Assembly: GCA_021774385.1 (NCBI GenBank)
Contig: JAJFJC010000261.1
Span: forward strand, 2,413 to 66,412
Direction: 5' to 3'
DNA: 64,000 nt
Source of the DNA: Alphaproteobacteria bacterium
Lineage (GTDB): Bacteria; Pseudomonadota; Alphaproteobacteria; UBA8366; GCA-2717185
Of the stretch, positions 10,740 through 55,522 are shown in pieces; position 1 is the first letter of the stretch; each line of letters begins with the position of its first letter. Under the pieces are notes generated by a model that was not told the origin of the DNA, searched no databases, and saw only the letters and a list, made by a program, of their open reading frames with translations. The position numbers were made by a program, and so were the translations under genes.

Positions 10740-10742
10740 TTT

Positions 10743-22811: not shown

Positions 22812-22890
22812 CTCCCTTTGACACTGCGCTTCGCACTCTTGGCGTTTGGGTGATATAACGCGAACCTCTACGGTCTTCTGGAGCCAGGAA

Positions 22891-29265: not shown

Positions 29266-29421
29266 GCAATGATTCCGGCTCGTGGATTCAATTTCACATC
29301 GTTCCTAGCACGATTCACGCCGAACGACGGCCCTTACACCATTCAAAGCCACGCGGTGCACAAAATCTAATCGGAAAACAGCATTGCAACAGCACCGCAA
29401 TCGCGGCTAAATCGGAAAATC

Positions 29422-30219: not shown

Positions 30220-30234
30220 CAAGGAAGCCGCCCC

Positions 30235-30966: not shown

Positions 30967-31034
30967 CCCCCTCTTTACCCTTCGGTCGCGACGGCATACG
31001 ATTACATATTGCATAACTTTTTGTCGGAAAACTG

Positions 31035-32111: not shown

Positions 32112-32121
32112 ACAAGGGAAT

Positions 32122-32676: not shown

Positions 32677-32692
32677 CCCTCAATTCCTTTCC

Positions 32693-33589: not shown

Positions 33590-34623
33590 TCGAGAGCGTC
33601 CATGAAAGCCGTCGCGACAAATGCCATGTCGTCGCCATTATACCGTTGATCGCAGGGCAACAGCAGCAGTTCCCGGCTTAGCGCGTGAGCCGCGGGAAAC
33701 ATTGAGCGCTCGGAGGGCAGATCCGGCCAATAACGCGCGGGGAAAATTCGATTGGCGCGTAGCCTCTCCCAAACCGCATCCCGGTTCCTGATTCGAACAG
33801 GAAACCCCATGGGAACAAATTCTGGCTCTAAATCTGGAAATAACGCGAATTCCTGCAGCTTTCCCGCGAGAAACGTATAATTTTCACACCGCCGCCGGCT
33901 TGCCGATGCCGCATCGATACCAGCCAGCAACCGCCGGGTTATGTCAGAAATCGGCTCATCGGAGACGGTCATTTCCGCCTCGACTTGACGATAGGCATCA
34001 TACCATCGCCGATTATCGCGCTCTTCAGCATCATCACGCCGCATCACGCGCGGGCGTTCCCGGTTTTTCGAGGTGTGTTCGGGGTGGGCAACCGGCTTCA
34101 AATGTCCCCCTGAATGGACCATGATCCCGCCATCGGGAACGCCGAATAGTTTTCGGGGGCTATAAAGAACCCAATTTGCCCAAGGTTCGGCCGCGGGCAT
34201 CAACGCTTGCGCACGATCCTCGACCCACAAAACCTCGTGCGTTTGCGCGACGAAGGATCGAAACATCTGTTCCGGCTGACAGCCGAAATAATCCACCGCG
34301 AGGACACAATCTCCCTCACGAAGCGACCGTGAAAGGACATCGGTATCGGGTGATAGCCGATTAATCAGGGGGTAAAAAAGGACCTCTCGTTCCTCCCCTG
34401 CCGCGCTAACCAGTTCGCGGCATATAAATTCCGGCAAAAATAGGCGCTTTATCTCGAATTGTTGCAGTAAGTGAGCCAGCGCACTGCGAGCATTGGCGAA
34501 AAACCAGGCGTTCGTCTCTTCGACATCCCATAATGAAAGTACATTTTCGGAGATATTTGGGCTTAGGGATTCCAACGGCAGGAAACCGCCGATAGCGCGC
34601 CTATTTACGGCTGGCGTCGACAT
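33586..34623 (-). CDS. DegT-like PLP-dependent transferase (second aminotransferase-fold enzyme), 345 aa
   Basis: I chose the ATG at 34623, which gives MSTPAVNRRAIGG... This start shares one base with the upstream stop (TAATG). The track ORF extends to 34749, inside the upstream gene. The Lys context is WVLYSPRKLFGVPDGGIMV. Confidence 0.55.
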   Translation of the reverse strand: MSTPAVNRRAIGGFLPLESLSPNISENVLSLWDVEETNAWFFANARSALAHLLQQFEIKRLFLPEFICRELVSAAGEEREVLFYPLINRLSPDTDVLSRSLREGDCVLAVDYFGCQPEQMFRSFVAQTHEVLWVEDRAQALMPAAEPWANWVLYSPRKLFGVPDGGIMVHSGGHLKPVAHPEHTSKNRERPRVMRRDDAEERDNRRWYDAYRQVEAEMTVSDEPISDITRRLLAGIDAASASRRRCENYTFLAGKLQEFALFPDLEPEFVPMGFPVRIRNRDAVWERLRANRIFPARYWPDLPSERSMFPAAHALSRELLLLPCDQRYNGDDMAFVATAFMDALE

Positions 34624-36887
34624 TATGAAGCATCCGCCGATCGTGGGCCGGCCCTTAAAAGGAATTGCGCGAAGCTGTCCGCGGCCGCATGGTCTTCGAA
34701 CAAACGGTCGCACCGGTCTTGGATTCGTTTTCCCAATTTCGAGCGCCATGCCCGGTTAGTGCCCAATCTCAATGCGATATCAATGTAGGATTCGCTTGTT
34801 GCCGCGATCAATTCTGATATTTCCAAGCGCTCATATAACGCCATTGTCGAGCGCCCGCGCGCGAAGCGGCTTGGAAAGGTAACAATCGGCACGCCCATCG
34901 CGAGCCCTTGATAAGCGGTGTTCCCTCCACTAAACGGCCAGGTATCAAGAAGAACATCCGTCACACATAGAATATTTAAGAAATTAGTTAAACTTTGCCT
35001 TTTTAATATTTGAACTCTCTCAATATTTTCGCCAAATTGTTTTGCCCATCTTTGCTTTAAAAGGTCTGACCAATGAGGTTCCGGCCCCTCGAATACGATG
35101 ATTGACGCCTTAGGGTCCCTCTTGAGGATCTCGGCAAAAGCCGAATCCATATCTGGATGAATTTTAAAGAGGCTTTGAGGACACACATAAAGCGTCGCGT
35201 TTTCCGGCAACCCAAACGCATCACGCAGCTTTAGGGGATACGGCCGCACTGGGCGGTCATAGTCGACCAACACACCGTCCAGCGCGGCAAGCTCTTCGCT
35301 ATAATACGCCGACGCATCTGGTTGCTCCAACGGCGCGCTGCTAATGAAATAGTCAATTGCTGGTATTCCCGTAGTATCGGGATGTCCGTTCGTCACACAT
35401 TGCACCGGCGCCAACCTCGAAAAGGCAAGAAAATAGGTCAACGGCTCCATGCCGATATCCGTGTATACCAGAACATCGAGCTTTTCGCGCGCAAGTCGTT
35501 CCCTTGCTTGAATTAGGCCGTTCGGTAGGATCACGGCATTGTCCACATCTTCCGCAATCGCGCGCCAGACAGGATCGTTATCGTCGAGAAATGTAAAAGC
35601 CGAGACGTGGATTTTCTCGCGCGATAGATGCCGCAAAATTCGGTGATAACACCACCCTACCGCATGATTCCGAAGGTAACGCGAAACAAAACCAACTTTT
35701 ATTTTCCGATTAGTCCGTCGTTCGGGCTTCTTGCAGTGCGGCGCCACAAACTCAAGCGTGGGACATGCCTTGGCATAGAGACGTGCAATTTTGCCGTTCA
35801 AAACACGATTATCTTCATCGTGATAGGACAGATGAAAATTAGTGATACCGACCTCGTTTATGGGGTCGTCGATATGTATTTTCTCCGCCAGCAACGCGTC
35901 GATTGCTGATTCCGTTTTTTCGCGCGCTTCCGCCATGGCGTGGATGGAAGAAGGGATGACAGGCAGAAGCGTCGCTAGCCGTATCCGCACACCCGGGTCT
36001 GGGCGAACCTGCAAAGCGGCACGATAGCTCGATGCAGCATCTTCATAGCGTCCTTGGCGCCGTAAAACATTACCAAGATTCCCGTACGCTTCAGGGGATT
36101 CTGGGTTTAATGTAATTAATCGGCGAAGAGTTGCTTCGGCAACAGCCGTATTCCCATCCGCAAGAAATGCAACAGCCATATTATTTAATGTTTCTTGATT
36201 GTTAGGATCAATATTTAAAGAAACACTATAATGTTCCAAAGCTTCGGAAAGCGCACCGCTTTCCATCCTAACCACGCCCAAATTGTTCCGGACGGTAATA
36301 TCCGAGGGAAAAGCGCTGACGAGTGATTGATATATTTCCGTCGCTCGCTTCAGGTCGCCGCGACGGCGGAAAATTTGCGCCAGACCAAGTTGTGCCGTGC
36401 GGTGCGAGGGCTGAGATTTGAGGGCCGATACATAATGCGCCTTTGCGCCGCTTATGTCGTTACGATCGAAAAGCGAATTACCGAGATTACAATGGGCATC
36501 GAGTAATTCAGGGTCGATCGCCAGCGCCTCTTGAAACACCTTCTCCGCATAGGCGGTATCGCCAATTGCACGGGCGGAAACACCGAGATTATTGAGAAAC
36601 GATGCATTTCGAGGCGCGCATGCGACGGCTTTCTCGAAAAAAACAAAAGCATCATGATGATGGCCCCGGCCGGCCGCGATGACGCCAAGCATATGGAGTG
36701 CATCGGCGTGATGCGGTTCGACTGACAGTATTTCGCGATATTTCACCCAAGCTTCGTCGATACGTCCCGCACGATGATCGCGAACAGCCTCCGCGTATTG
36801 AAATTTCGTTTGATCACGTTCGATCATGCTATTCCCACCAAACAAGGCGCGGTCGAAGCGAATTGCGTAGCTCCCTCTATGCAACAC
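34623..36887 (-). CDS. Bipartite TPR protein with C-terminal GT41-like (O-GlcNAc-transferase/SPY-like) domain; candidate flagellin glycosyltransferase
   Basis: 754 aa with about 9 TPR repeats in the N-terminal half. The C-terminal half has KVGFVSRYLRNHAVGW, VLVYTDIGMEPLTYFLAFSRLAPVQCVTNGHPDTTGIPAIDYFISS and DTWPFSGGNTAYQGLAMGVPIVT, typical of GT41-type domains. Confidence 0.7.
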   Translation of the reverse strand: MLHRGSYAIRFDRALFGGNSMIERDQTKFQYAEAVRDHRAGRIDEAWVKYREILSVEPHHADALHMLGVIAAGRGHHHDAFVFFEKAVACAPRNASFLNNLGVSARAIGDTAYAEKVFQEALAIDPELLDAHCNLGNSLFDRNDISGAKAHYVSALKSQPSHRTAQLGLAQIFRRRGDLKRATEIYQSLVSAFPSDITVRNNLGVVRMESGALSEALEHYSVSLNIDPNNQETLNNMAVAFLADGNTAVAEATLRRLITLNPESPEAYGNLGNVLRRQGRYEDAASSYRAALQVRPDPGVRIRLATLLPVIPSSIHAMAEAREKTESAIDALLAEKIHIDDPINEVGITNFHLSYHDEDNRVLNGKIARLYAKACPTLEFVAPHCKKPERRTNRKIKVGFVSRYLRNHAVGWCYHRILRHLSREKIHVSAFTFLDDNDPVWRAIAEDVDNAVILPNGLIQARERLAREKLDVLVYTDIGMEPLTYFLAFSRLAPVQCVTNGHPDTTGIPAIDYFISSAPLEQPDASAYYSEELAALDGVLVDYDRPVRPYPLKLRDAFGLPENATLYVCPQSLFKIHPDMDSAFAEILKRDPKASIIVFEGPEPHWSDLLKQRWAKQFGENIERVQILKRQSLTNFLNILCVTDVLLDTWPFSGGNTAYQGLAMGVPIVTFPSRFARGRSTMALYERLEISELIAATSESYIDIALRLGTNRAWRSKLGKRIQDRCDRLFEDHAAADSFAQFLLRAGPRSADAS

Positions 36888-38176: not shown

Positions 38177-39658
38177 ATGCAGGTATCGAGCGTGGACGTC
38201 CCCCAAACACCGGGCACGGAAAACCAATCGGCAAAGATTTCGGAGCCATCCGGGAGTGTGTTCGCCACGTTGCTTAAAAGCATCGTCGGCCAGAATGGGG
38301 CCCGGTTGCGTCTCGAAGCCGGCACGAGCCTGGGGCAATCGATCGTCCCCGATGCCGTCCGGCCACGCACGGACGAATATGAATCTAAACCGGAACCGTC
38401 GGACGATGCGGTCGAGGCTAGCACAGACCAAACTGACGATATTAGCGACAGCCCAGAAGCATCCGAGCAGCCGGTTCAATCCGATAATTCGAGGGACGCC
38501 GAACAAACATTAGCAATAATCGACGAAACGTTAGAGATCCCTACCGAAACGTTAGACCGCCCCACCACGGACACGGCGACGTTGGCCTTGGCTACGGTTC
38601 CAGCGGCACTAACCACATCAAATGGACAAGGACAAACGGGGCCTGTTCAACAAAATGTCGGTTCAACTCAGGCGGTAGCGCAATCATCCACGCCAGAACA
38701 AACCGCCCCGGTAGCCGCCGCACCTCTGGCCTCGAAAGAAAGTCGGAGCGAAACGCAACGCTTGAGCGCCCAAGTCACCGATACACCTCAAGAACTGATA
38801 TCACGCCCCAGCAACACACTGGCCGCCGTGTCAGCGGTTGCCTCGCAAACCGAAAAACAGCGCGCCGTTGGAAATACCGTCGTAGCCGACCCTGAACGGA
38901 GTACGGAAAGTTCCGGCAACTTACTGTTGAACAGTGCGGCAAAGAAGGTCACGGCAAACGGAAACAACATCCGAGGCAATGCGGCGCAGGCGGCACCCAC
39001 GACGGCCGCGGGGACCGAACCCTCCGCTACCCCCAGCAGTCAATCGCTTTCATTTCCAGCTTCGATGGCGGCGGCGCAACCTTCGGCCGCCGCAACAAAT
39101 CGCACGGCTATGGGCCTTCCCACTCGAAGCCCTGAAATGGCGCCCCTCAATTCCATCAGCGGTGGTTCGACCGCAGGGTCGGCAGCAGCGGGAACCGCTC
39201 GAATTGCCACACCGCCGCCACCTGCGCCGATCCCCCTACGTGTACTGACCGAACAAATCGCGGTGCAGATTCAGAAATCCGTTGGCCAAGGTCTCGATCG
39301 AATAAAAATTCAGCTCAAACCCGCGGAACTCGGTCGCGTCGAAATTAAGCTCGATGTGATGCAGGATGGCCGCGTGGCCGCGTCGGTCATCGTCGACCGG
39401 CCGGAAACACTGGAAATGTTGCAGCGAGACGCACGGGGCCTGCAACAAGCCTTGCAGGACGCCGGCCTGAAATCCGACGGCGCGAATTTAAGCTTTAATC
39501 TCAGCGGCCGTGGTGCCTCAGATGGTCAGCAAAGCGCGGAGGGCAACGGCGGACCGAACGGCAACCAGAACGAAAATGCGGACAGCGAGTTAGCCGCGAT
39601 TGAATCCGAAACACTCCATCGACGCGCCAGCGACAGCATGATCGACGTAGAAGTCTGA
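38177..39658 (+). CDS. fliK: Hook-length control protein FliK
   Basis: 493 aa with a long Pro/Ala/Ser/Thr-rich ruler region. The C-terminal Flg_hook-type domain reads DRIKIQLKPAELGRVEIKLDVMQDGRVAASVIVDRPETLEMLQRDARGLQQALQDAG. Confidence 0.85.
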   Translation: MQVSSVDVPQTPGTENQSAKISEPSGSVFATLLKSIVGQNGARLRLEAGTSLGQSIVPDAVRPRTDEYESKPEPSDDAVEASTDQTDDISDSPEASEQPVQSDNSRDAEQTLAIIDETLEIPTETLDRPTTDTATLALATVPAALTTSNGQGQTGPVQQNVGSTQAVAQSSTPEQTAPVAAAPLASKESRSETQRLSAQVTDTPQELISRPSNTLAAVSAVASQTEKQRAVGNTVVADPERSTESSGNLLLNSAAKKVTANGNNIRGNAAQAAPTTAAGTEPSATPSSQSLSFPASMAAAQPSAAATNRTAMGLPTRSPEMAPLNSISGGSTAGSAAAGTARIATPPPPAPIPLRVLTEQIAVQIQKSVGQGLDRIKIQLKPAELGRVEIKLDVMQDGRVAASVIVDRPETLEMLQRDARGLQQALQDAGLKSDGANLSFNLSGRGASDGQQSAEGNGGPNGNQNENADSELAAIESETLHRRASDSMIDVEV

Positions 39659-44506: not shown

Positions 44507-45559
44507 ATGGAATTGAGTCTCCCCTTGGAAAACAAGAAGTACCCACCCTATCTTTTCGACCTCGATTTCGACGCAAGCGCATTACCGCCGGAACCCGAGA
44601 TTGTCGAAGAGGCGCCACCGCCACCAACCTTTTCCAGCGAGGAATTACAGGCTGCGCGCGATGAAGGGTATGCCTCGGGAAAAGCGGAAGGGCTCTCGCA
44701 GACCCAATCGGAATTCGACCTACATCTAGGCGAAATCATCGCTGCAATTCAGCATAACTTCGCGACCTTGGCAGCCGCCCAGACCGAAACAAACGAAACA
44801 ACACTTCGCGACGCGGTCCAAGTTGCATTGGCTATAAACAAGAAATTGTTTCCGGAATATGCCAGACGGCATGGGCTCGACGAAATCGAGGCTTTTATTT
44901 TAGGCACACTTTCCACGCTGTTTTCCGAGGCTGAAATTACCATCAACGTGCCAGAGGCGATTGCCAGTGAAATTGCCGCACGGCTCGAACCGATCGCTAA
45001 ACCAAGCGGATTGTCGGAAAGGTTAAGAGTCGCCGCCGACCCGACATTGGGCACGGCGGATTGCAAAATTGAATGGGGCAATGGTGGTGCCGAGCGAAAC
45101 GGCGAACTGCTTATGGCCGAAATAGAAACCATTGCCGCACGCTTCCTGGATAGCCATCCGCAACCATTCGAAACGCCAATCAAACACATTGAGGCTGTGT
45201 CGAAACCGGAACCCGACCTTGTTGAAACAGTATTCCCCGACGTTGAAACGTCAGATCAGCAGCAACAAACGGCTCAGGACGACGTCACCGGTGCGAACGA
45301 AGAACTTATCGACAGTCCTGGCCGTGATGTGGAACCGGAACCATCGAACGACACTCCTGCCGCGGTTCCCCTTGCGGATCAATTAGCGGAAGGCGCAATC
45401 GAGCCGGAAGAACCGGAAGCGGAAAATCCGGAAGAGGAAATTCCAGCAGAGATGACGCCGCCGTTACCCAAGCAGATGGAAAATCAAACAGCTGAAGACA
45501 CACCTGTTGACGTCCCCCCCACACCGGCCGCCCTTCCAGGAGCAATCGATGCTAGCTAG
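44507..45559 (+). CDS. fliH: Flagellar export ATPase regulator FliH-like protein with a long acidic/proline-rich C-terminal tail
   Basis: 350 aa. The N-terminal pattern is ELQAARDEGYASGKAEGLSQ. The FliH/SctL-type domain ends at about residue 215 (TLGTADCKIEWGNGGAERNGELLMAEIETIAARFL). The last ~135 aa are low-complexity and rich in E, P, D and T. Confidence 0.65.
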   Translation: MELSLPLENKKYPPYLFDLDFDASALPPEPEIVEEAPPPPTFSSEELQAARDEGYASGKAEGLSQTQSEFDLHLGEIIAAIQHNFATLAAAQTETNETTLRDAVQVALAINKKLFPEYARRHGLDEIEAFILGTLSTLFSEAEITINVPEAIASEIAARLEPIAKPSGLSERLRVAADPTLGTADCKIEWGNGGAERNGELLMAEIETIAARFLDSHPQPFETPIKHIEAVSKPEPDLVETVFPDVETSDQQQQTAQDDVTGANEELIDSPGRDVEPEPSNDTPAAVPLADQLAEGAIEPEEPEAENPEEEIPAEMTPPLPKQMENQTAEDTPVDVPPTPAALPGAIDAS

Positions 45560-45696: not shown

Positions 45697-46056
45697 ATGG
45701 CAGAAGACGACGAATCGCCACCTCTAGAAGAGTTGGACGAAGAACAAACCGAAGCGGAAGACACCGGCGTAGACCCTCGAATTGCCGAGATGGAATCACC
45801 CCTCGGCGCGCGCGATTTGGAAGCTGTCTACCAAATTCCCGTGCAAGTCTCGGCAGTATTGGGCAAATCAACGATGCAGGTTAGCAATCTGCTGAAAATG
45901 GGGCGCGGCGCTGTTGTCGAATTGGATCGAAAGGTCGGCGAGGCCATCGACATCTATGTGAACAACCGGCTGGTGGCGCGTGGTGAGGTCGTCGTTGTCG
46001 AAGACAAACTTGGTGTGACGATGACGGAAATCATCAAGTCAGAGCGCAATACATGA
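45697..46056 (+). CDS. fliN: Flagellar C-ring protein FliN
   Basis: 119 aa. The SpoA domain reads IPVQVSAVLGKSTMQVSNLLKMGRGAVVELDRKVGEAIDIYVNNRLVARGEVVVVEDKLGVTMTEII. Confidence 0.92.
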   Translation: MAEDDESPPLEELDEEQTEAEDTGVDPRIAEMESPLGARDLEAVYQIPVQVSAVLGKSTMQVSNLLKMGRGAVVELDRKVGEAIDIYVNNRLVARGEVVVVEDKLGVTMTEIIKSERNT

Positions 46057-46116: not shown

Positions 46117-46956
46117 ATGGCAATTGAAGCCGAAGGAGGCGGCGATTCAAGAACGCCCACGGTGTCGCCACCGGTAACGCGGTCGGCTGTCGACCTGGCG
46201 ACCTTGGTCGGTATATCGGGTGCGTTCCTACTAATTTTCACGGCGATTTATTTGGGCGGAACGCCGGGTGCGTTCCTCAACATCCCATCGATATTTATTG
46301 TCGTTGGCGGCACCGTGGGTGTGACGACGGCCTGTTTTTCCCTACGCGACATGTCCCATGCCGTCCGCATTGTCGCTCAGACCGTATTTCATAGATCACG
46401 AGACCCCGCCGGAGCGGCCATTCATGCTCTGCAACTTGCCCAGATCGCGCGTTACAGAGGCGCGCTGGCACTACAGCCACATATCGAAAGTATCGAGCCG
46501 CAGAGAATGCTTTATCGCGGCCTGACTATGGTCGTCGATGGCACACCGGGTGACGAAATCGAGCGGATCATGCAGCAGGAGTTGCAGGCAACCGCCCAGC
46601 GCCAAGCACGCAGCGTGAACGTTTTGCGCCGCGCCGCCGAGATCGCCCCCGCAATGGGTCTGATCGGAACCCTCGTCGGATTAATACAAATGCTGGGAAA
46701 TCTCGAAGACCCGAGCACGATTGGACCGGCGATGGCGGTCGCGCTTCTCACCACGTTCTACGGCGCAATACTCGCCAATATGGTTTTCACGCCCCTTGCA
46801 TCAAAACTTGAACGAAACTCGAGCGAAGAGACCCTTATCAACCACCTTTATGTAATGGCGTCGGCTTCGATTGGCCGGCAAGAGAACCCAAGGCGGCTCG
46901 AAATGCTGCTGAATACAATTCTGCCTCCCGGACACCGGGTCGAATATTTCAACTAG
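46117..46956 (+). CDS. motA: Flagellar stator protein MotA (MotA/TolQ/ExbB family)
   Basis: 279 aa and four TM segments. The conserved C-terminal channel region is APAMGLIGTLVGLIQML...AVALLTTFYGAILANMVFTPLASKL. Confidence 0.85.
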   Translation: MAIEAEGGGDSRTPTVSPPVTRSAVDLATLVGISGAFLLIFTAIYLGGTPGAFLNIPSIFIVVGGTVGVTTACFSLRDMSHAVRIVAQTVFHRSRDPAGAAIHALQLAQIARYRGALALQPHIESIEPQRMLYRGLTMVVDGTPGDEIERIMQQELQATAQRQARSVNVLRRAAEIAPAMGLIGTLVGLIQMLGNLEDPSTIGPAMAVALLTTFYGAILANMVFTPLASKLERNSSEETLINHLYVMASASIGRQENPRRLEMLLNTILPPGHRVEYFN

Positions 46957-46980: not shown

Positions 46981-48357
46981 ATGAGACTACTAATCGTCGG
47001 CACCCTGGAAGGCCATATCAGCACCGCTGGAAAAATTGCAATTTCCCGAGGTGCGAAAGTCAGCCATGTCAATTCGATTGAGGAAGCGCTTGCTTCCGTT
47101 CGCTCCGGTCAAGGCGCGGAATTACTACTCGTTGATGTCAAACTCAATATCGGCGACCTAGTAACGCGTCTCGCCAGCGAGCGCATCAATGTACCCGTCG
47201 TATCGTGCGGAATCGGAACCAGCGCAGAGGCCGCGGTGGAAGCGATCCGCCAAGGCGCGCGGGAATATATACCACTCCCCCCCGACCCTGAACTGATCGC
47301 CGCCGTCCTGGAGGCCGTGGCCGCGGAAAGCAATACGATCATACATCGCGATCCGGCAATGAAAGCGGTCATTGCGCTGGCTGACCAAATCGCGCCATCC
47401 GAAGCTTCGATCCTAATCACGGGCGAATCGGGCACCGGCAAGGAATTGATGGCGCGCCATATCCACGTGAAAAGCAACAGGTCGTCAAAGGCTTTCGTTG
47501 CGGTAAATTGCGCGGCAATACCGGAGAACCTTCTTGAATCGGAATTATTCGGACACGAAAAAGGCGCTTTTACAGGAGCCGTGGCGAGGCGGATTGGTAA
47601 GTTCGAGGAAGCCGATGGTGGCACACTACTGCTTGACGAGATCAGTGAGCTGCACCCCCGCCTTCAAGCCAAACTTCTACGCGCTGTCCAAGAACGCGAA
47701 ATAGATCGAGTCGGCGGTCTAAAGCCGATCAAGATCGATGTCAGGCTCCTCGCGACATCAAACCGAAATCTTCAGGATGCAGTGAAAAACGGTGATTTTC
47801 GTGAAGATCTGTATTTTCGCCTGAATGTCGTGAATATCGGCATCCCGGCATTGAGAAACCGGCCGCAGGACATTGAAATTCTAGCCAATTTCTTTGCCGA
47901 CAAATATGCCGAGGCAAATGGCGTCGCTAGGAAACCCATAGGACAGGATACGTTGAACACGCTCCAACGACACGGCTGGCCAGGCAATGTCCGAGAGCTT
48001 GAAAACACCATGCATCGTTCCGTTCTGCTTTCACAGGGCACCGAACTCGCCATGGATGCGACGATACTTCAATTGTCTGGCATCAGCGTCGGGGAACCGG
48101 CGGCGCCGTCGTTCGCGCCAACAACACCAGCCGATTCGAATAGTACCAATGGCGAAGCCGACTTCGTGCGGCGCACCGTCGCCGAGGTCGAACGCGACCT
48201 CATCATTGACACGTTGCAACATTGCCTCGGCAACAGAACCCATGCCGCGAATATTTTAGGCATTTCAATCAGAACGCTTAGAAACAAACTAAAGCTTTAC
48301 GCCGAGAATGGCCTCGCGGTACCCATGCCCGGTGAAGTGGAGTCAACGGCACCTTAG
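46981..48357 (+). CDS. flbD: Sigma-54-dependent transcriptional activator FlbD (degenerate receiver + AAA+ + Fis-type HTH)
   Basis: 458 aa. Walker A is GESGTGKE, the GAFTGA loop is EKGAFTGAV, and the C-terminal HTH is NRTHAANILGISIRTLRNKL. The N-terminal domain (MRLLIVGTLEG...AKVSHV...REYIPLPPDPELIAAVLEAV) lacks the acidic pair and the conserved Lys. It resembles Caulobacter FlbD. Confidence 0.85.
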   Translation: MRLLIVGTLEGHISTAGKIAISRGAKVSHVNSIEEALASVRSGQGAELLLVDVKLNIGDLVTRLASERINVPVVSCGIGTSAEAAVEAIRQGAREYIPLPPDPELIAAVLEAVAAESNTIIHRDPAMKAVIALADQIAPSEASILITGESGTGKELMARHIHVKSNRSSKAFVAVNCAAIPENLLESELFGHEKGAFTGAVARRIGKFEEADGGTLLLDEISELHPRLQAKLLRAVQEREIDRVGGLKPIKIDVRLLATSNRNLQDAVKNGDFREDLYFRLNVVNIGIPALRNRPQDIEILANFFADKYAEANGVARKPIGQDTLNTLQRHGWPGNVRELENTMHRSVLLSQGTELAMDATILQLSGISVGEPAAPSFAPTTPADSNSTNGEADFVRRTVAEVERDLIIDTLQHCLGNRTHAANILGISIRTLRNKLKLYAENGLAVPMPGEVESTAP

Positions 48358-48401: not shown

Positions 48402-50534
48402 ATGACCGATGCGACACCAGAAGTAGGCGGAGAAAGCACGAACGCCCGTGCCATCGCCTCGTCCTCGATTAATGGTACGCTCCGAAACATTTCAAAACGC
48501 GGCGATATCGCGTTGGCGCTTGGCATCGTCTGTATTTTGGTGGTGCTCCTCTTGCCGATGCCGACATGGATGTTGGATTTTTCGCTGGCGTTGTCGATCA
48601 CGTTTTCCGTCCTCATCCTAATGACGGTTCTGTTTATTAAGGAACCTCTCGAGCTAAACTCTTTCCCTACAATTCTGCTGATCGCGACAATGATGCGATT
48701 GGCGCTGAACCTTGCATCGACCCGCCTAATCCTCGCCGACGGTCATACCGGGACCGCGGCTGCGGGACGCGTCATTGAATCCTTCGGAAATTTCGTCGTT
48801 GCCGGCAACTATGTCATCGGCATTATTGTTTTCGGAATTTTGGTAATCGTAAATTTCGTCGTGATTACCAAAGGCGCGGGACGTATCGCGGAGGTGGCGG
48901 CCAGGTTCAGTCTCGACGCCATGCCCGGCAAGCAGATGGCGATCGATTCCGATCTATCGGCGGGTTTAATCGGCGAGGAGGACGCCCGGAACCGGCGTTC
49001 GAAACTCGAGGAAGAAAATTCATTCTTTGGTGCAATGGACGGAGCGTCGAAGTTCGTGCGTGGCGACGCGATTGCCGGCCTACTCATCACGTTTATCAAC
49101 ATTATCGGCGGCATCATTATCGGCACGGCGCAGCAGGACATGTCCGTGTCGGAAGCGGCGCAGAACTATACATTGCTGACCGTCGGCGACGGCCTGGTGA
49201 GCCAAATTCCGGCACTCATTGTTTCCATTGGCGCGGGTATGCTGGTTACCAAAGCGGGCGTCCGGGGAACCACGGACAAGGCCGTGTTTGGTCAATTAGG
49301 CGGCTATCCGAGCGCGCTGGGAATATCTTCCGTTCTACTCGTCGTCATGGCGATGCTACCCGGAATTCCAGCTTTTCCGTTCCTGTTGCTCGCCGCGATT
49401 ACCGGCGGCCTCGCGTTTAATCTGACGCGGCAGGAGGCAAAAACGGTTGCCGACGAGCAAGCCAACGCCGCCGCGGAAGCAGCCGAAGTTCCCGTCGCGG
49501 AAGAACCCATTACAACGGCGCTTGCAATTGACCTGATACGGCTCGAACTCGGATATGGCCTGCTATCGATGATCAATTCGCAAAAAGAACAGCGCCTTAC
49601 CGATCAAATCAAAGCGCTCCGGCGCCAGCTCGCCTCGGAAATGGGGTTCGTCATGCCGGCGGTCCGCATACAAGACAATCTCCAATTGGCGGCGAATGCC
49701 TATGTTGTGCGTATTAAGGAAATTGAAGCGGGAACAGGGGAACTACGCCCCAGCATGCTGTTGGTGATGGATCCTAGAGGAGAACAAATAAGTCTGCCTG
49801 GGGAGGCAACACAGGAACCGACATTTGGTCTACCTGCCATGTGGATCAACGAACAAAGCCGCGAGGAAGCAATGTTCCGTGGTTACACTGTTGTGGATGC
49901 TCCAACGGTGATCACAACCCACATAACCGAAATTATTCGGGAAAACATGTCGGAACTTTTGTCTTACGTCGAAACGCAAAAACTTCTCGACGAACTCGAT
50001 GCCGCACACCAGAAACTAATCGCCGATTTGGTTCCCAATCAAATTTCTGTCGGTGGTGTACAACGAGTCCTGCAAAACCTCCTTTCCGAGCGGATTTCCA
50101 TTCGCGACCTTTCGACCATCCTGGAAGGGATTTCCGAAGCTTGCGGTTACACACGTAACATGACCCAAATTACCGAGCACGTTCGGTCGCGGTTGGCGCG
50201 GCAACTTTCAGATACAAACACCAATGAACAAGGTCACGTCCCCTTGATCACCCTATCGCCGGAATGGGAACAGGCATTCGCGGAATCGATCATCGGCGAA
50301 GGAGAAGAAAAGCAACTTGCAATGTCGCCGACCGACTTACAAAAATTTATCAATGCGGTTCGAACCACGTTTGAGCGACATGCGATGCAAGGCGACGTCC
50401 CAATTTTGCTCGTCAGTCCGGGCATTCGGCCTTATGTCCGCTCGGTAATCGAGCGTTTCCGCCCCGTTACTGTCGTTATGTCTCAAAATGAGATCCACGC
50501 GAAGGCGCGGATCAAGACCGTCGGACAAATTTAG
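48402..50534 (+). CDS. flhA: Flagellar export-gate protein FlhA
   Basis: 710 aa. The conserved FHIPEP region is EVAARFSLDAMPGKQMAIDSDLSAGLI...FFGAMDGASKFVRGDAIAG. A large cytoplasmic C-terminal domain follows. Confidence 0.93.
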   Translation: MTDATPEVGGESTNARAIASSSINGTLRNISKRGDIALALGIVCILVVLLLPMPTWMLDFSLALSITFSVLILMTVLFIKEPLELNSFPTILLIATMMRLALNLASTRLILADGHTGTAAAGRVIESFGNFVVAGNYVIGIIVFGILVIVNFVVITKGAGRIAEVAARFSLDAMPGKQMAIDSDLSAGLIGEEDARNRRSKLEEENSFFGAMDGASKFVRGDAIAGLLITFINIIGGIIIGTAQQDMSVSEAAQNYTLLTVGDGLVSQIPALIVSIGAGMLVTKAGVRGTTDKAVFGQLGGYPSALGISSVLLVVMAMLPGIPAFPFLLLAAITGGLAFNLTRQEAKTVADEQANAAAEAAEVPVAEEPITTALAIDLIRLELGYGLLSMINSQKEQRLTDQIKALRRQLASEMGFVMPAVRIQDNLQLAANAYVVRIKEIEAGTGELRPSMLLVMDPRGEQISLPGEATQEPTFGLPAMWINEQSREEAMFRGYTVVDAPTVITTHITEIIRENMSELLSYVETQKLLDELDAAHQKLIADLVPNQISVGGVQRVLQNLLSERISIRDLSTILEGISEACGYTRNMTQITEHVRSRLARQLSDTNTNEQGHVPLITLSPEWEQAFAESIIGEGEEKQLAMSPTDLQKFINAVRTTFERHAMQGDVPILLVSPGIRPYVRSVIERFRPVTVVMSQNEIHAKARIKTVGQI

Positions 50535-50540
50535 AAGACG

Positions 50541-51527
50541 ATGCGACTGAAAACGTTTCACGCGGAAAGCATGAAGGAAGCCATGGAGCTCGTGCGCGAG
50601 CAACTCGGCGCGGACGCAATCATTGTCGCGACCCATGAAGACGAGAGCGCGCGGGACGTCCGCATTACCGCAGCAGTTGAAGGTGATGATCTTGAGTCAC
50701 CGTTACTCGAAAACGCCGAACCACTCGATATCGTCGACCAGCTTAGCGTCTCGCTCGACGCCCATGGCGTGCCCACGGCACTCGCCGATAAATTATTAAA
50801 CGCTGCATCCCATCTCGGTATAGCGGACCCCGTGCTCGCCTTGGCGGGGGCATTGGATGATTGTTTCGCCTTTGCACCGCTCCCCGACCAACGCGGCCCC
50901 AAGCCCTTAATGTTCATAGGCCCTCCAGGTTCCGGAAAAACCGTCAGCATGGCTAAATTGGCGGTGCGTATCCGTCTTGAGGACAATTCCGTCAGCTTTA
51001 TCTCCACGGACACGGTTCGGGCAGGTGCGATCGATCAGCTCAGCACATACGCCAAGTATCTGAAGGCGGAATTCAGCAGTGCCAATACCCCTGTGTCCCT
51101 GGTCGAAGCCATGCGCAACGCGAATGCAGCGGCGCAGATACTGATCGATACGGCGGGCGTCAACCCGCATAGCGCGGAGGACATTCATCGCCTCCTTGAG
51201 TTCACGGAAACGGCGCAAATGGAACGAATTCTCGTTGTCGCGGCGGGCGGAGACGCAATAGAAACCGGGGAACTCGCAGCGGCCTTTGCTCAAATAAGGC
51301 CGAGCCGAATACTCATTACCCGTCTCGATATGGTCCGGCGGCTTGGCGGCATCCTGGCCGCCGCCGACGCGAGCGGGCTGCCCTTTTGTGACGTCAGCCT
51401 TACGCCCGATATCGCATCCGGCCTGCGCGCCATTAATCCTGTTTCTCTGGCACGCCTCTTGCTACCTGACTTCGCACAAGACTCTTCTTTGCAAGCGGAA
51501 ACCATACAAGCGACTGGATCCAACTAG
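50541..51527 (+). CDS. flhF: Flagellar SRP-type GTPase FlhF
   Basis: 328 aa. The N-terminus is MRLKTFHAESMKEAMELVREQLGADAIIV. G1 is FIGPPGSGKT, DTAG is LIDTAGV, and ITRLD is also present. Confidence 0.85.
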   Translation: MRLKTFHAESMKEAMELVREQLGADAIIVATHEDESARDVRITAAVEGDDLESPLLENAEPLDIVDQLSVSLDAHGVPTALADKLLNAASHLGIADPVLALAGALDDCFAFAPLPDQRGPKPLMFIGPPGSGKTVSMAKLAVRIRLEDNSVSFISTDTVRAGAIDQLSTYAKYLKAEFSSANTPVSLVEAMRNANAAAQILIDTAGVNPHSAEDIHRLLEFTETAQMERILVVAAGGDAIETGELAAAFAQIRPSRILITRLDMVRRLGGILAAADASGLPFCDVSLTPDIASGLRAINPVSLARLLLPDFAQDSSLQAETIQATGSN

Positions 51528-52316
51528 ATGTCACTTCGACCGATAGCAGCCGACACACCCGACCCAGCGGCTCGCCGCAAGATAATTGCCGTTGCCTCGG
51601 GCAAGGGTGGCGTGGGCAAAACCTGGTTCTCGATTTCTCTAAGCCAAGCGCTGAGCCAAAGCGGCCAGCGAACCCTCCTTTTCGACGGTGACCTTGGTTT
51701 GGCAAATGTCGACATACAACTTGGCCTGATGCCAAAGCAGGACCTCGCCGGGGTAATCGCTGGGAAACTTACCTTACCGCAAGCGATTACCAACTATCGC
51801 GAGGGGCAGTTCGATATTTTGGCCGGCCGTTCCGGCGCTGGGAATTTGGCAATGCTACCCGTACAGCGGCTCGTCACGCTTCGTGACAATCTGATGCGCC
51901 TGGCCGGAAAATACGATCGAGTCATTCTAGATCTAAGTGCCGGTGTCGACCGCACGGTCCAGACTCTTGCCGCGGCCGCGGGAACCGCCTTGGTCGTTAC
52001 GACGGACGAACCGACTTCACTCACCGATGCCTATGCCTTCATCAAACTGACCGTCGCCGACCATCCAGAGGCCGATTTGCGGATCGTCGTGAACATGGCG
52101 GAGACATCGAACAGTGGGCGCGAGACATATGAGACCTTGCGCAAGGCTTGTTACAATTTTCTTGGGAGGGAAATTCCCTTGGCCGGAATTGTTCGAAACG
52201 ACAGCAAGGTGCGCGAAAGCATTCGTCGCCAAACAGCACTCCTGACCCGCCACCCCTCAGCCGAGGCCGCGCAGGATGTCGAAGCGATCGCCGCCCGATT
52301 GAAGCGGGAGACATGA
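51528..52316 (+). CDS. flhG: MinD/ParA-type ATPase FlhG (FleN/YlxH)
   Basis: 262 aa with the deviant Walker A VASGKGGVGKT. It lies directly after flhF with a 0-nt gap. Confidence 0.85.
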   Translation: MSLRPIAADTPDPAARRKIIAVASGKGGVGKTWFSISLSQALSQSGQRTLLFDGDLGLANVDIQLGLMPKQDLAGVIAGKLTLPQAITNYREGQFDILAGRSGAGNLAMLPVQRLVTLRDNLMRLAGKYDRVILDLSAGVDRTVQTLAAAAGTALVVTTDEPTSLTDAYAFIKLTVADHPEADLRIVVNMAETSNSGRETYETLRKACYNFLGREIPLAGIVRNDSKVRESIRRQTALLTRHPSAEAAQDVEAIAARLKRET

Positions 52317-53815
52317 GCGAGGCTTTACCGCCTACATCGAATGCGACGTCGGCGCCGCCGGCGACACCTCATTCGTCACAATTAGCACCACCGCAGCCGC
52401 CAACCAATATCGGAGCGGGCACAATCTTGCGGCTGCCCCCCAATGTAATCACTCTGCCAATTGGCGAACGCCTGGAAGGTATCGTCACGGCTCGCTTGGC
52501 AAACACACAATCAGTTCTTCAAACGAGACTGGGGCCCGTTACGGTTCAATCGGCCCAGGCACTGCCTGTTAACAGCCAAATCATCTTCACTGTTTCCACG
52601 GCGGGTCCACGACCCACTATTCAACTTGCCTACCAACCGGAACGCCCCGCATCACCGCCCCCCCACACACCGCAAGCAAGGCTGGCGGGAACCGCAGCAC
52701 CGACATTGCCAGTCGCGACGCGCTCCAACCCAGCGCCGCCCGTTCCCGCACAACCGGCAATACAAGGTCTCACCGACAGTCAATCGCAGCTACGCGGTAG
52801 TCTCGTAACCGCGACGGTTGTTCGTATCGCCGCGCCGGCAAACGCGCGTTCGATATCTCAGTCCACATCGACTGCGGCCCTGGGACCGTCGCCTCACCAA
52901 ACCGCGCTTGCAACCGGCGATCGTTTTGCCGTGCGGATTTCCGCGATTACCCGGCCCGGCACAGGCGCCCCGCCGGCATCTCCCGGCACCGCGTCGACGA
53001 CGGGAACCGTAACCGGCACCACAAATGCCGGACATGCCGTCGTCCGAACCAACAGCGCCGAGCTTTCCCTCGCCGTACCGCGCCCACTGCCGGTGGGAAG
53101 CAACCTTCTGTTGCAGGCGACGGGAACACCAATATCTCAATCACCACCAGCCCTCCAACAGAGCGGACTCGTCCTCGCGGAACGGTGGGAGACCTTGAGC
53201 GACATTTTGCGCGTGGGCGCATCGTCACCTACACCAAACGCCATAAATCAGTCGGTGCCCCAACCTGGCCCGCAACTCACGAACACAATGCTATTCTTCA
53301 TGGCGGCGTTGCGCGCCGGCGACCTGCGCGGTTGGCTGGGACCTAATGCGGTACGTCTTATCGAACGCGAAGGACTACTGGGCCGGATAAGCGAGGAATT
53401 CGGCCTCATGCAACGTATCGCGAGCGAGCCCGCGGGGCAGGATTGGCGGCTCTTCCTGATACCCGTAATCTCAGAAGAGCAATTGCACCAAATGCGCCTC
53501 TTCATTCGCGACCATGGTGGCGGGGACCAAGATGGCGAAACACCGCAAGAGACTCGCTTCATCATAGAAGTAACGTTCACAAAACTCGGCCCATTTCAGT
53601 TCGACGGTCTGGCCCGGCCTAAAGCGCTCGACCTTATCATTCGAACCGAGCGGGAGATAACAAAGCATATGCGGCAATCCATCAGCGAGGTGTTCACCGA
53701 TACAACGTCCGCGCTCGGTTTAACCGGACGCATTGGGTTCAAAAAGGAACGTTTTTTCGAAATACAGCCGCTGCGCGATTCGGGCCTCGCGCATGATTCC
53801 GGCATCGTCGCGTGA
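52313..53815 (+). CDS. Pro/Ala/Thr-rich 500-aa protein of unknown function, translationally coupled to flhG
   Basis: The ATG at 52313 overlaps the flhG stop (ATGA). The track ORF extends upstream to 52148, inside flhG. The N-terminal two thirds are low-complexity with repeated PLPV/GxxL beta-like modules. The C-terminal ~170 aa are globular (WRLFLIPV...RFIIEVTFTKLGPFQFDGLARPKALDLIIRTE). A weak FliK-C-like pattern is an impression only. Confidence 0.45.
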   Translation: MSEALPPTSNATSAPPATPHSSQLAPPQPPTNIGAGTILRLPPNVITLPIGERLEGIVTARLANTQSVLQTRLGPVTVQSAQALPVNSQIIFTVSTAGPRPTIQLAYQPERPASPPPHTPQARLAGTAAPTLPVATRSNPAPPVPAQPAIQGLTDSQSQLRGSLVTATVVRIAAPANARSISQSTSTAALGPSPHQTALATGDRFAVRISAITRPGTGAPPASPGTASTTGTVTGTTNAGHAVVRTNSAELSLAVPRPLPVGSNLLLQATGTPISQSPPALQQSGLVLAERWETLSDILRVGASSPTPNAINQSVPQPGPQLTNTMLFFMAALRAGDLRGWLGPNAVRLIEREGLLGRISEEFGLMQRIASEPAGQDWRLFLIPVISEEQLHQMRLFIRDHGGGDQDGETPQETRFIIEVTFTKLGPFQFDGLARPKALDLIIRTEREITKHMRQSISEVFTDTTSALGLTGRIGFKKERFFEIQPLRDSGLAHDSGIVA

Positions 53816-53828
53816 CGAAGTTCTCGCA

Positions 53829-54230
53829 ATGAACGACTCTCCCGAAAGCACGATAGCAGCAACGGAGCGCCGCTCACTGCTGTCGACCGCGTCAAACCCA
53901 ACTACCGCACTAGATTATCTGAACCATCTTGAAGGTCACACGCGCGGCGCGAATGCCTATATCGTGCTGCGTTATGTCCCTGACAAACTCACCCTGCCGC
54001 CCGCATCGTTCACTCGCTATCTCAACGCTCTAGACACTTATTCAACTAAAACCCTGGAACAGCTCGCCGTGGCGATACTGGAAGACGTCAACAACGAACT
54101 CGTACCCCGATGGGCCCAAATAGTCGCAACGCGCGATTTAGGAGAAGATGCTGGTCATCGCATCCTTATCGAGGACAGGCAGCCAAAATGGGACAACCCT
54201 GCCCTCCTCGCGCGCATGGAGCGTTTTTAG
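53829..54230 (+). CDS. Small T-fold-like protein with a QueF-like YVPDK...YL segment but no catalytic Cys (function unknown)
   Basis: I chose the ATG at 53829, giving 133 aa. The segment ANAYIVLRYVPDKLTLPPASFTRYLNAL resembles the type I QueF segment [23 protein letters not shown]. The CPxTGQPD thioimide-forming Cys motif is absent. Confidence 0.35.
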   Translation: MNDSPESTIAATERRSLLSTASNPTTALDYLNHLEGHTRGANAYIVLRYVPDKLTLPPASFTRYLNALDTYSTKTLEQLAVAILEDVNNELVPRWAQIVATRDLGEDAGHRILIEDRQPKWDNPALLARMERF

Positions 54231-54373
54231 ACAGTCTCCAAGCAAAACCAGGCTCGTTTGACATTTGTCCTTGTGCGCGAAAAATCTATTCGCCTTGAAA
54301 TGACTAATTCGATTTAAACCGATAGTTCGCTTTTATTGCTCAATAAGACAGATGCGTTACTCGCGTCCAATTT

Positions 54374-55522
54374 TCATCGAAGTAGTTTTTTCGCGATACT
54401 GAGCAAATGTATCTGACTGGTCCCCTCATAAACGCGGAAGGCCCTTACATCTCGATAAAATCGCTCGATCCCAGTTCCCTTCACATAGCCTTGACCGCCA
54501 AAGATTTGCACGACTCGATCCGCCACGCGCCCACACATTTCCGTTGAGTAATATTTACAAAGACTCACTTCCAAGGTGACATCCTCCCCCCTGTCGCGCT
54601 TACGGGCTGTCTCGAGAATGAGCGCACGCGCGGCTTCGATTTCCACCTTGCACTCGGCAAGCATCGCCTGAATGAGTTGAAATTCACCGATTGCCTTATC
54701 GAACTGCCGACGTTCCTTCGCAAAGGCAATCGCGTCATCCAACATGCGGATCGCGGGACCGGTGGAAAGTGCCGAGAGGTTAATGCGCTGCTTGTTTAGG
54801 GCCTTCATAACGGTTCGGAACCCCAGCCCCTCCACTCCACCAAGGACCGCAGTATCGGGCACGAAGACATTTTCAAAGGCGATTTCGCCAATTGGCGCGC
54901 CTTCTTGGCCCATTTTCGGCGTCGACGCGCTCGGTGTCATACCCTCCGTGCCGCGTTCAATTAGAAATGCCGTGACACCGTCGGCACCTCTATCACCCGA
55001 CGTTCGGGCAAATACAGTGTAGAGATCGGCGATGGGGGCCAGCGTAATATAGCGTTTGTCACCATTGATACGGTAGCCGCCATCAATCTTTACCGCTCGG
55101 GTTTTCATCGCCGTCGCATCGGAGCCAGCCGAGGTTTCCGTCAACGCCAGGCAACCGATCATCTCACCCGACGCTAGGCGCGGCAGATAGTGCCGCTTCT
55201 GTTCCTCCGTCCCGTCGCGGATGATGCACTCCGATCCAATGCCGGCATTCTGACCGCCGTAAACACGGAATGCCACGGAACATTGGGTAAATTCCATGAA
55301 TGCGATAGCCAACTCCTCGGACGTCAGACCGAGCCCGCCATACTCCTCCGGAATGCTCCATCCAAAGCTACCGAGCTCTTGCAGCTTCTCGACTACATCA
55401 CCGGGGATTCGATCCTCTGCCTCGACACGGTCCTCATTAGGAACGGCAACGTCTCTGATGAAACCGCGAATTTGCGTTATCAGCGTTTGTAATTTCTCTT
55501 GATCACGTATCACAGCGTCCAC
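54374..55522 (-). CDS. Acyl-CoA dehydrogenase family protein
   Basis: 382 aa. The ACAD patterns are GCLALTETSAGSDA, QFDKAIGEFQLIQAMLAE and the C-terminal IFGGQGYVKGTGIERFYRDVRAFRVYEGTSQI. Confidence 0.85.
   Translation of the reverse strand: MDAVIRDQEKLQTLITQIRGFIRDVAVPNEDRVEAEDRIPGDVVEKLQELGSFGWSIPEEYGGLGLTSEELAIAFMEFTQCSVAFRVYGGQNAGIGSECIIRDGTEEQKRHYLPRLASGEMIGCLALTETSAGSDATAMKTRAVKIDGGYRINGDKRYITLAPIADLYTVFARTSGDRGADGVTAFLIERGTEGMTPSASTPKMGQEGAPIGEIAFENVFVPDTAVLGGVEGLGFRTVMKALNKQRINLSALSTGPAIRMLDDAIAFAKERRQFDKAIGEFQLIQAMLAECKVEIEAARALILETARKRDRGEDVTLEVSLCKYYSTEMCGRVADRVVQIFGGQGYVKGTGIERFYRDVRAFRVYEGTSQIHLLSIAKKLLR

Follow-up and report, generated by a model that had tools for sequence, protein, structure and literature searches.

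A putative QueF-derived pseudoenzyme and a candidate FliK-like protein at the predicted end of an early flagellar operon in Rhodospirillales-type Alphaproteobacteria

Although the gene sets of flagella are regarded as well catalogued, an unnamed gene pair stands inside the core early flagellar operon described here. The pair lies in a 64,000-nucleotide (nt) stretch of an alphaproteobacterial contig (JAJFJC010000261.1; hereafter the window, over whose whole length all coordinates are counted, with its first letter as position 1) and consists of two open reading frames (ORFs), ORF-A and ORF-B, encoded immediately behind flhF and flhG. Both are real genes, whose conservation exceeds chance by a wide margin, and from their sequence context we read them as the probable co-transcribed last two cistrons of an early fliN-motA-flbD-flhA-flhF-flhG operon. 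They are lineage-specific flagellar accessory genes of Rhodospirillales-type Alphaproteobacteria and, as such, candidate new flagellar parts. At least 156 species, cultivable Azospirillum among them, conserve the pair, which has no family name, and full-text literature searches returned no paper on the ORF-A family, the ORF-B family or a link between QueF and flagella. ORF-B appears to be a QueF-derived pseudoenzyme, and ORF-A belongs to a new family in which a variable chain precedes a constant globular part. With a probability of roughly 0.4, we favour a reading in which ORF-A is exported or acts at the export gate as a second FliK-like protein, with ORF-B as its regulatory T-fold partner.

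The physical coupling of the genes is tight. The flhG stop overlaps the start of ORF-A by 4 nt (ATGA), as the initial annotation of this DNA had pointed out from the letters alone; the ATG at 52313 is found within 'gggagacATGAgcg', with a Shine-Dalgarno-like GGGAG run immediately 5' of it. The Cys-less ORF of 133 amino acids (aa) that had been placed thirteen nt further downstream agrees in coordinates and composition, the TGA of ORF-A occupying 53813-53815 and the ATG of ORF-B starting at 53829. A reading of this spacer found no strong Shine-Dalgarno sequence, and in the database the gene called for ORF-B (P0001) is 145 aa long, beginning 36 nt more upstream and overlapping the end of ORF-A. 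Whichever start applies, the two genes are tightly coupled. The gaps between operon genes range from 60 to -4 nt and a consensus scan called no terminator-like site on the + strand from flhG to the end of ORF-B, which leads us to read the eight genes from fliN to ORF-B as one operon. Its end after ORF-B would be marked by a weak hairpin, in a scan whose count of terminator-like sites was not above the shuffled expectation. The next gene, an acyl-CoA dehydrogenase on the opposite strand, is convergent across a 143-nt gap.

The same arrangement is met in numerous relatives. A scan of one genome per species, with the EDRQPKWDN motif of ORF-B as search pattern, placed ORF-B relatives in 156 species-level genomes, and neighbours were counted at the best 80 of these 156 loci by tblastn. 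Many Azospirillum species are included, together with Thalassospiraceae, Terasakiella, Aestuariispira, Curvivirga, Caenispirillum, Marivibrio and Magnetovibrio. ORF-A stands directly upstream of ORF-B in 74 of the 80 loci, with a median of about 22 nt (range -10 to 138) between its stop and the start of the ORF-B tblastn match; three of the other six are too short to tell and three have no ORF-A (L009, L083, L084). Upstream of the pair, 44 of 47 loci have FlhA, 47 of 53 have FlhG and 37 of 51 have FlhF. Both FlhF and FlhG are present at 36 of the 51 loci with sufficient upstream DNA, FlhG only at 9, FlhF only at 1 and neither at 5. The order fliN-motA-flbD-flhA-(flhF)-flhG-ORF-A-ORF-B is borne out by the gene calls of Shumkonia mesophila, two Rhodospirillales metagenome-assembled genomes (MAGs) and a 3.2-Mb metagenomic contig. 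The 4-nt overlap of flhG and ORF-A recurs in the gene calls of two loci (L088, Oceanibaculum; L089), and the gap measures 13-88 nt in six others (L001, L003, L004, L086, L087, L091). Genes 3' of ORF-B vary among loci, which places the pair at the end of the operon. The nearest relatives are marine or uncultured alphaproteobacterial MAGs (L006, L007). Synteny of both genes with flhFG, proposed as a check in the initial annotation, thus held across Rhodospirillales-type Alphaproteobacteria.

Neither gene depends on the other for its presence. ORF-A is more widespread than ORF-B: it follows flhG without ORF-B in Dongia deserti, Oceanibaculum pacificum and one further locus (L091), and Pararhodospirillum oryzae has a flhF-flhG-ORF-A cluster without flhA. 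In Stellaceae, one contig has a distant homologue flanked by flhA and flgI, without flhF or flhG. ORF-A directly follows flhA at three loci where both flhF and flhG are locally absent (L046, L052, L092), and flhF at one locus without flhG (L082). ORF-B, for its part, directly follows flhG in L009, where ORF-A is absent, and orphan homologues that keep EDRQPxWDN occur in non-flagellar neighbourhoods (L083, 8740-9363; L084, 8998-9351). By-eye reading of translations gives a phasin-like ORF and an RpoH-like sigma factor as neighbours of the first orphan, and a CNNM/TlyC-like protein and a Mnh-type antiporter as those of the second. An obligate ORF-A/ORF-B pair was accordingly rejected, each gene occurring alone, and so was a strict dependence on FlhF/FlhG, the pair being found without flhF and/or flhG at the locus. 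On a related aspect, flhF is missing between flhA and flhG at about one-fifth of related loci (L001, L020, L025-L027, L030, L044, L068, L076, L078 and L080; Shumkonia mesophila is an example), and at L046, L052 and L082, where flhG or both flhF and flhG are missing locally, ORF-A and ORF-B stay in place.

The origin of ORF-B can be traced with some precision. A resemblance to QueF and its T-fold, at first a weak call by eye, has since passed Pfam, NCBIfam, a profile search of the PDB, an AlphaFold2 (AF2) model and Foldseek. ORF-B matches the Pfam family QueF (PF14489) at E 2.3e-5 and 24.9 bits, below the cutoff of 27.3, and NCBIfam TIGR03139 weakly (23 bits against a cutoff of 86.9). These curated cutoffs are missed, yet the relationship is still real, because 35 of 37 aligned relatives match PF14489 at E <= 0.01 (best 2.5e-8), and no other family was matched. 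Sensitive profile searches do find the T-fold relationship: with the family profile (alignment A1), B. subtilis QueF (4fgc/4f8b) was retrieved from the PDB at E 6e-4 to 7e-4, the archaeal QueF-L archaeosine synthase at 1.7e-3 and GTP cyclohydrolase I (FolE) at 0.13. The AF2 model is confident (mean predicted local distance difference test score, pLDDT, 89.4; predicted template modelling score, pTM, 0.83) and displays a beta-beta-alpha-alpha-beta-beta T-fold core, with strands at residues 32-38 and 43-50, helices at 58-73 and 76-91, and strands at 95-104 and 107-117. Foldseek places QueF at the top (E 3e-7, template modelling (TM) score 0.66-0.73), followed by FolE/GTP cyclohydrolase I (2e-6) and QueF-L (1.5e-4); 42 matches reach E <= 1e-3, and the matches listed are all QueF, FolE/GTP cyclohydrolase I or QueF-L chains. 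Profiles and predicted structure together show a descent of ORF-B from unimodular (type I) QueF, and the family is a new T-fold subfamily. With type I QueF (B. subtilis YkvM; 4f8b, 4fgc; PF14489), ORF-B has in common the T-fold and size class, a Y-(V/I)-P-D strand end, a P-R-(W/Y) strand start, the Tyr closing the QueF motif and the substrate-anchoring Glu (E77 in ORF-B, E97 in QueF). A word-indexed search collected 53 homologues at E <= 1e-3, and 533 cluster representatives were found at the same threshold among 1.84 billion proteins. A fusion of ORF-B to other domains was not seen: the best 150 of the 533 representatives are all stand-alone proteins of 105-166 aa.

What ORF-B has lost is as informative as what it has retained. 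In the hidden Markov model alignment to 4f8b, Cys55 of B. subtilis QueF, the nucleophile that forms the thioimide, has no counterpart. The absence of the catalytic Cys motif suspected at the outset is thereby substantiated; the protein contains no Cys at all, 33 of 53 homologues likewise lack it, and no column of alignment A1 has a conserved Cys. The position of Asp62 corresponds to a variable, gap-rich loop, and the QueF motif E78-x-K80-x-x-K83 aligns to P57, A59 and T62 of ORF-B, which are non-conserved columns. The NADPH-binding motif of QueF is defined as E(S/L)K(S/A)hK(L/Y)(Y/F/W), and only its final Tyr (Y64) is invariant in the ORF-B family. With the nucleophilic Cys, Asp62 and the NADPH-binding motif lost, an active QueF was rejected; judged by these residues, ORF-B cannot function as a nitrile reductase and is best described as a QueF-derived pseudoenzyme. 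To judge by the literature searched, it would be the first case of a QueF/T-fold scaffold that lost its catalytic residues and was taken into a flagellar operon.

Glu77, by contrast with these lost residues, is invariant in A1, aligns to the E of 'FHED' in 4f8b and stands at the N-terminus of helix 2 in the AF2 model. Unlike QueF, ORF-B also carries an invariant C-terminal motif of its own, EDRQPKWDN, in which D116, R117, Q118, P119, W121, D122 and N123 are invariant, and it is encoded in flagellar operons and not with queuosine genes. The other invariant residues of the family are Y49, Y64, E77, D86, R94 and W95. With its T-fold Glu and polar motif invariant, ORF-B has probably kept a ligand pocket or presents a protein interface, and it is most likely a small oligomeric binding or regulatory subunit, predicted to receive a planar guanine-like ligand and/or a protein partner. 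Members of the T-fold superfamily form oligomeric barrels whose active sites lie where subunits meet. The T-fold relatives of ORF-B by profile search and Foldseek include QueF-L (PDB 5jyx, 5k0p) and FolE. QueF-L is a precedent for a QueF scaffold re-used for another reaction and, according to the title of the PDB entry, proceeds through a covalent thioimide intermediate; such chemistry requires a catalytic Cys, and ORF-B has none. FolE uses a zinc site, whereas alignment A1 contains no conserved Cys or His able to form a metal site in ORF-B.

ORF-A is a protein of another kind. A word-indexed search gave 60 homologues of 284-794 aa at E <= 1e-3. Pfam gave no match for ORF-A and 36 relatives (37 members, E <= 0.1), and no NCBIfam family was matched by any of them. 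It has neither a membrane or hydrophobic segment (the maximum Kyte-Doolittle mean over 19 residues is 1.05) nor a signal peptide. The AF2 model (mean pLDDT 77.9) and the family alignment (A2) describe a disordered N-terminus with a conserved MSxxVPP start, two beta modules, both six-stranded units, a helical bundle and a C-terminal domain formed by a beta hairpin followed by beta-beta-beta-alpha-beta. A disordered Pro/Ala/Thr/Ser linker separates the two beta modules, and the length of the flanking linkers differs between family members. A profile-profile comparison by hhalign of residues ~48-99 with residues ~228-280 gave a probability of 97% (E = 1e-10), so the modules are homologous; the repeated beta-like modules perceived in the initial annotation are therefore genuine, and the four peptides quoted there are all present in the translations. 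Its description of a Pro/Ala/Thr/Ser-rich start and a globular end also stands, with displaced boundaries: low complexity ends at about residue 290 and not 330, and the C-terminal part measures about 210 aa and not 170. Across the family, the N-terminal part ranges from 250 to 583 aa, is nearly uncharged and consists for 59-78% of P/A/T/S/G/Q, while the C-terminal part is constant at 210-236 aa. Alignment and model thus show a new family with a ball-and-chain layout.

Such a layout recalls the FliK/YscP/PscP rulers. As in these, the N-terminus of ORF-A is disordered, its low-complexity chain varies in length and its globular C-terminal part is constant; Cys and a signal peptide are lacking, and the gene is located in a flagellar cluster. 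The C-terminal domain also has the strand-helix order (beta-beta-beta-alpha-beta) of the FliK/YscP switch domain, and a tentative match to the PscP SS domain is one of fold: Foldseek returned 5cuk with a probability of 0.98, the highest among the ORF-A matches listed, a TM score normalised to the target of 0.52, a root-mean-square deviation of 3.0 over 68 columns and an E-value of 0.28. By eye, the ORF-A pattern RFxIEVxFSRLGPFQFDGL...LDLIxRT...ALGxxGxxxF resembles the alphaproteobacterial FliK core DRIxIxLxPAELGRVEVxL...DGRV...ALQDAGL...GSLSF, and three conserved glycines span 46 residues in ORF-A ('LG', 'DG', 'ALG') against 44 in alphaproteobacterial FliK ('ELG', 'DG', 'DAGL'). The sole hhalign alignment of the C-domain profiles (A3 against A4) falls on the FliK core of the type III secretion substrate specificity switch (T3S4), pairing RFIIEVTFTKLGPFQF with DRIKIQLKPAELGRVEI at a probability of 1.7% and E 0.03. 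One family member, from Roseospira, has been automatically named FliK in UniRef. We regard the T3S4-likeness of this domain as suggestive, at the level of the modelled fold only. ORF-A differs from FliK/YscP/PscP by the lack of significant sequence similarity, by an extra helical bundle and beta hairpin before the domain and by two folded beta modules within the chain. Its gene is placed after flhG, not beside flgD-flgE, where the FliK of the window is encoded.

Cysteine content adds to the comparison. The ORF-A family contains 11 Cys in 31,455 residues (0.03%), equal to the content of the FliK family, and 53 of 60 proteins are Cys-free. Exported flagellar subunits generally have no Cys; in the window, the exported FlgE, FlgK, FlgD, flagellin and FliK have 0 Cys each, and the cytoplasmic FlhA, FlhF, FlhG, FlbD and FliI have 1-8. 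The impression of a ruler-like protein, formed from the sequence alone, hence gains support from the variable chain with its constant C-terminal part, the Cys-free family and the fold-level match to PscP.

Put together, the variable chain and constant C-terminal part, the Cys-free composition, the fold-level T3S4 resemblance and the constant linkage to flhA form the basis for reading ORF-A as an exported or gate protein. ORF-A would work at the flagellar type III export gate or be exported through it and would serve there as a second FliK-like measuring or switching factor, by virtue of a putative T3S4 function; second, because a canonical FliK (Flg_hook, E 4e-17) is already encoded at 38177-39658, before flgD-flgE. 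It may contact FlhB or FlhA, and ORF-B may touch ORF-A in the cytoplasm, where it would modulate or escort it. The small size and acidity of ORF-B, and its place right behind a putative export substrate, are chaperone-like. If correct, a second ruler- or switch-like substrate beside canonical FliK may bear on assembly order in polar Alphaproteobacteria that combine FlhF/FlhG with FlbD/FliX.

Several results weigh against this reading. The T-fold is no known type III chaperone fold, and ORF-A without ORF-B (Dongia, Oceanibaculum, L091) or ORF-B without ORF-A (L009, L083, L084) makes an obligate pair unlikely. Low-complexity proteins are Cys-poor anyway. Foldseek of the full-length ORF-A model gave no match at E < 1e-3, the PscP match included; hhalign between the ORF-A family and the FliK of the window found nothing, hmmsearch of ORF-A against FliK/Flg_hook in both directions gave nothing below E 0.16, Pfam Flg_hook (PF02120) is absent from the 37 members at E <= 0.1, and PDB profile searches with the ORF-A family came back empty. 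FxxxPhi is the motif recognised at the gate, and none was seen by eye in the N-terminus of ORF-A. The presence of a canonical FliK adjoining flgD-flgE also counts here. ORF-A was thereby rejected as the true FliK of the operon; a FliK paralogue detectable by sequence was rejected on the searches above, the fold-level likeness alone remaining.

The main competitor is a cytoplasmic role for ORF-A as scaffold or adaptor of the FlhF/FlhG system for flagellar placement and number, in which the extended proline-rich region would anchor FlhG/FlhF at the pole or on the nascent MS/C ring, with ORF-B as a tuning factor. We hold it to be rather unlikely, although the predicted translational coupling to flhG (ATGA overlap here and in L088 and L089), the stand-alone flhF-flhG-ORF-A cluster of Pararhodospirillum without flhA, the frequency of FlhG upstream (47 of 53 loci) and the lack of a signal peptide or membrane segment are all as expected of such a protein. 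FlhF/FlhG partners and polar landmarks such as FipA, HubP/FimV and TipN/TipF are lineage-specific and are known by a membrane anchor, DUF2802, LysM or coiled coils. Like them, ORF-A is encoded beside flhF-flhG, is lineage-restricted and has low-complexity regions; unlike them, it has no transmembrane segment, LysM, DUF2802 or any Pfam match, and no similarity to FipA, HubP/FimV or TipN-type landmarks was found with Pfam. The landmark likeness proposed in the initial annotation has consequently lost ground, and so has its suggestion that both genes are specific FlhF/FlhG partners. Unlike a strict partner, ORF-A is also encoded right after flhA where flhF and flhG are locally absent, or after flhF without flhG (L046, L052, L082, L092); the pair persists without flhF in about 9-12 loci that have flhG, and each gene occurs alone. 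As ORF-A occurs without ORF-B and, after flhA, without flhF/flhG, it is not strictly an FlhF/FlhG partner. A near-total lack of Cys is, in addition, typical of exported and not of cytoplasmic flagellar proteins. At somewhat less than even odds, a FliK/YscP-type protein exported through, or acting at, the type III gate fits ORF-A better than a cytoplasmic landmark.

ORF-B might instead be an autonomous ligand-binding protein, or an enzyme other than a reductase, acting on a 7-deazapurine, a pterin or a guanine nucleotide, its flagellar location reflecting only regulation, or hitch-hiking, and ORF-A being functionally independent. The T-fold Glu with its dense invariant polar set (Y49, Y64, E77, D86, R94, W95 and DRQPxWDN), GTP cyclohydrolase I as next-best structural match, the non-flagellar neighbourhoods of the orphans in L083 and L084 and the persistence of ORF-B after the loss of ORF-A in L009 lend it some weight. 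It is nonetheless improbable in our view: at 74 of 80 loci ORF-B has stayed within tens of nt of ORF-A, inside the flagellar operon, a conserved His or Cys for a metal site is lacking, and the gene-called loci showed no connection with queuosine or folate genes. Still less credence is given to ORF-A as an extracytoplasmic structural part of a lineage-specific elaboration of the basal body (for example a collar, a disk or a scaffold associated with the rod), which would reach its place through the flagellar export apparatus and have no part in switching. A Cys-free protein without a Sec signal, encoded early in the operon and carrying two small beta-barrel-like modules of a kind common in periplasmic flagellar scaffolds, could suit this purpose, yet no known motor accessory structure was matched (the MS-ring 8z5v reached a Foldseek probability of 0.18), and a chain that varies ahead of a constant C-terminal part is more in keeping with rulers than with ring-forming scaffolds.

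The favoured reading of ORF-A as a FliK-like export protein can be extended into a more elaborate proposal, which we consider a long shot. ORF-B would be a ligand-sensing pseudoenzyme, keeping the QueF pocket for a 7-deazaguanine or guanine nucleotide, and would control ORF-A, a secreted or gate-bound FliK-like switch acting on FlhB or on a paralogue reduced to the FlhB C-terminal domain (FlhB-C). Together, the two would subject flagellar type III export to a metabolite-gated checkpoint, one peculiar to Rhodospirillales-type bacteria combining FlhF/FlhG and FlbD/FliX. FlhB-C is a known target of T3S4 domains, which makes an FlhB-C-only protein a candidate partner of ORF-A. In the window, positions ~2500-2937 (+), within an ORF at 2038-2937, match the C-terminal cytoplasmic domain of FlhB only (Bac_export_2 profile positions 261-335). 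The encoded protein adjoins a fliO-like gene (3253-3561) and fliP (3522-4292), is divergent from flgB, flgC and fliE, and has a likely N-terminus, MQKPVPP, that resembles the MSxxVPP start of the ORF-A family.

Table 1. Coordinates of the operon genes and of the features of ORF-A and ORF-B in the window
Feature	Position	Strand	Basis
fliN	45697-46056	+	ORF list + Pfam/NCBIfam
motA-like (MotA-type stator protein)	46117-46956	+	ORF list + Pfam/NCBIfam
flbD, sigma-54 activator	46981-48357	+	ORF list + Pfam/NCBIfam
flhA	48402-50534	+	ORF list + Pfam/NCBIfam
flhF	50541-51527	+	ORF list + Pfam/NCBIfam
flhG	51528-52316	+	ORF list + Pfam/NCBIfam
ATGA overlap, flhG stop/ORF-A start	52313..52316	+	sequence read
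ORF-A, 500 aa, 0 Cys	52313-53815	+	ORF list, sequence read
ORF-A beta module 1, residues 31-107, six-stranded	52403..52633	+	AF2, strands pLDDT >90
ORF-A beta module 2, residues 164-274, with disordered Pro/Ala/Thr/Ser loop insertions	52802..53134	+	AF2
ORF-A helical bundle, residues 293-371, conserved LFFxxALRxGDLRxWLG	53189..53425	+	alignment A2, AF2
ORF-A C-terminal beta/alpha domain, residues 378-478, candidate T3S4-like	53444..53746	+	AF2
Spacer, ORF-A stop to ORF-B start, 13 nt	53816..53828	+	sequence read
ORF-B, 133 aa, 0 Cys, isoelectric point 5.3 (acidic)	53829-54230	+	ORF list, sequence read
Codon of invariant Glu77, ORF-B	54057..54059	+	alignment A1; aligns with B. subtilis QueF Glu97
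Family motif EDRQPKWDN, ORF-B residues 115-123	54171..54197	+	alignment A1
Weak terminator-like hairpin in the 143-nt convergent gap 3' of ORF-B	54351..54367	+	consensus scan only

The surrounding flagellar cluster offers further observations. The acyl-CoA dehydrogenase gene (54374-55522, -) stands between ORF-B and the convergent fliJ-fliI, while fliJ begins a few to about 15 nt after ORF-B in the closest relatives (L006, L007), a difference suggestive of a local insertion of the dehydrogenase gene into this cluster. Between fliF and fliN, an ORF of 350 aa (44507-45559, +) has no Pfam or PDB match; by eye it is FliH/FlbE-like (EELQAARDEGYASGKAEG), with a long acidic Pro/Glu-rich tail. FliG was not identified among the scanned ORFs of the 64-kb cluster.

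FliX and FlbD constitute the Caulobacter-type checkpoint from class II to class III genes. Here, FliX (17067-17510, -) and FlbD (46981-48357, +) are encoded together with FlhF/FlhG (50541-52316, +). A survey of Gram-negative polar flagellates set organisms having FlhF/FlhG and a two-component system against alphaproteobacteria without FlhF/FlhG (PMC7064773). The locus, with FlhF/FlhG together with FlbD and FliX, belongs to neither group.

Other genes of the cluster are poorly annotated (4314-7799, -; 8510-9181, -; 10053-11201, -). Such genes encode, upstream of motB, a protein of 1161 aa showing TPR and AMIN-like hints; they also encode one of 223 aa with a weak MotB-plug match only, a MgtE_N-like protein and a DUF6468 protein adjoining fliM. 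Finally, in the regions 22846-24888 (+) and 28159-36887, two large TPR-glycosyltransferases (GT9- and GT41-like) flank the flagellin, FlaF and FlbT genes in company with an aminotransferase, a methyltransferase, dioxygenases and GNAT acetyltransferases, which suggests an island for flagellin glycosylation or modification.

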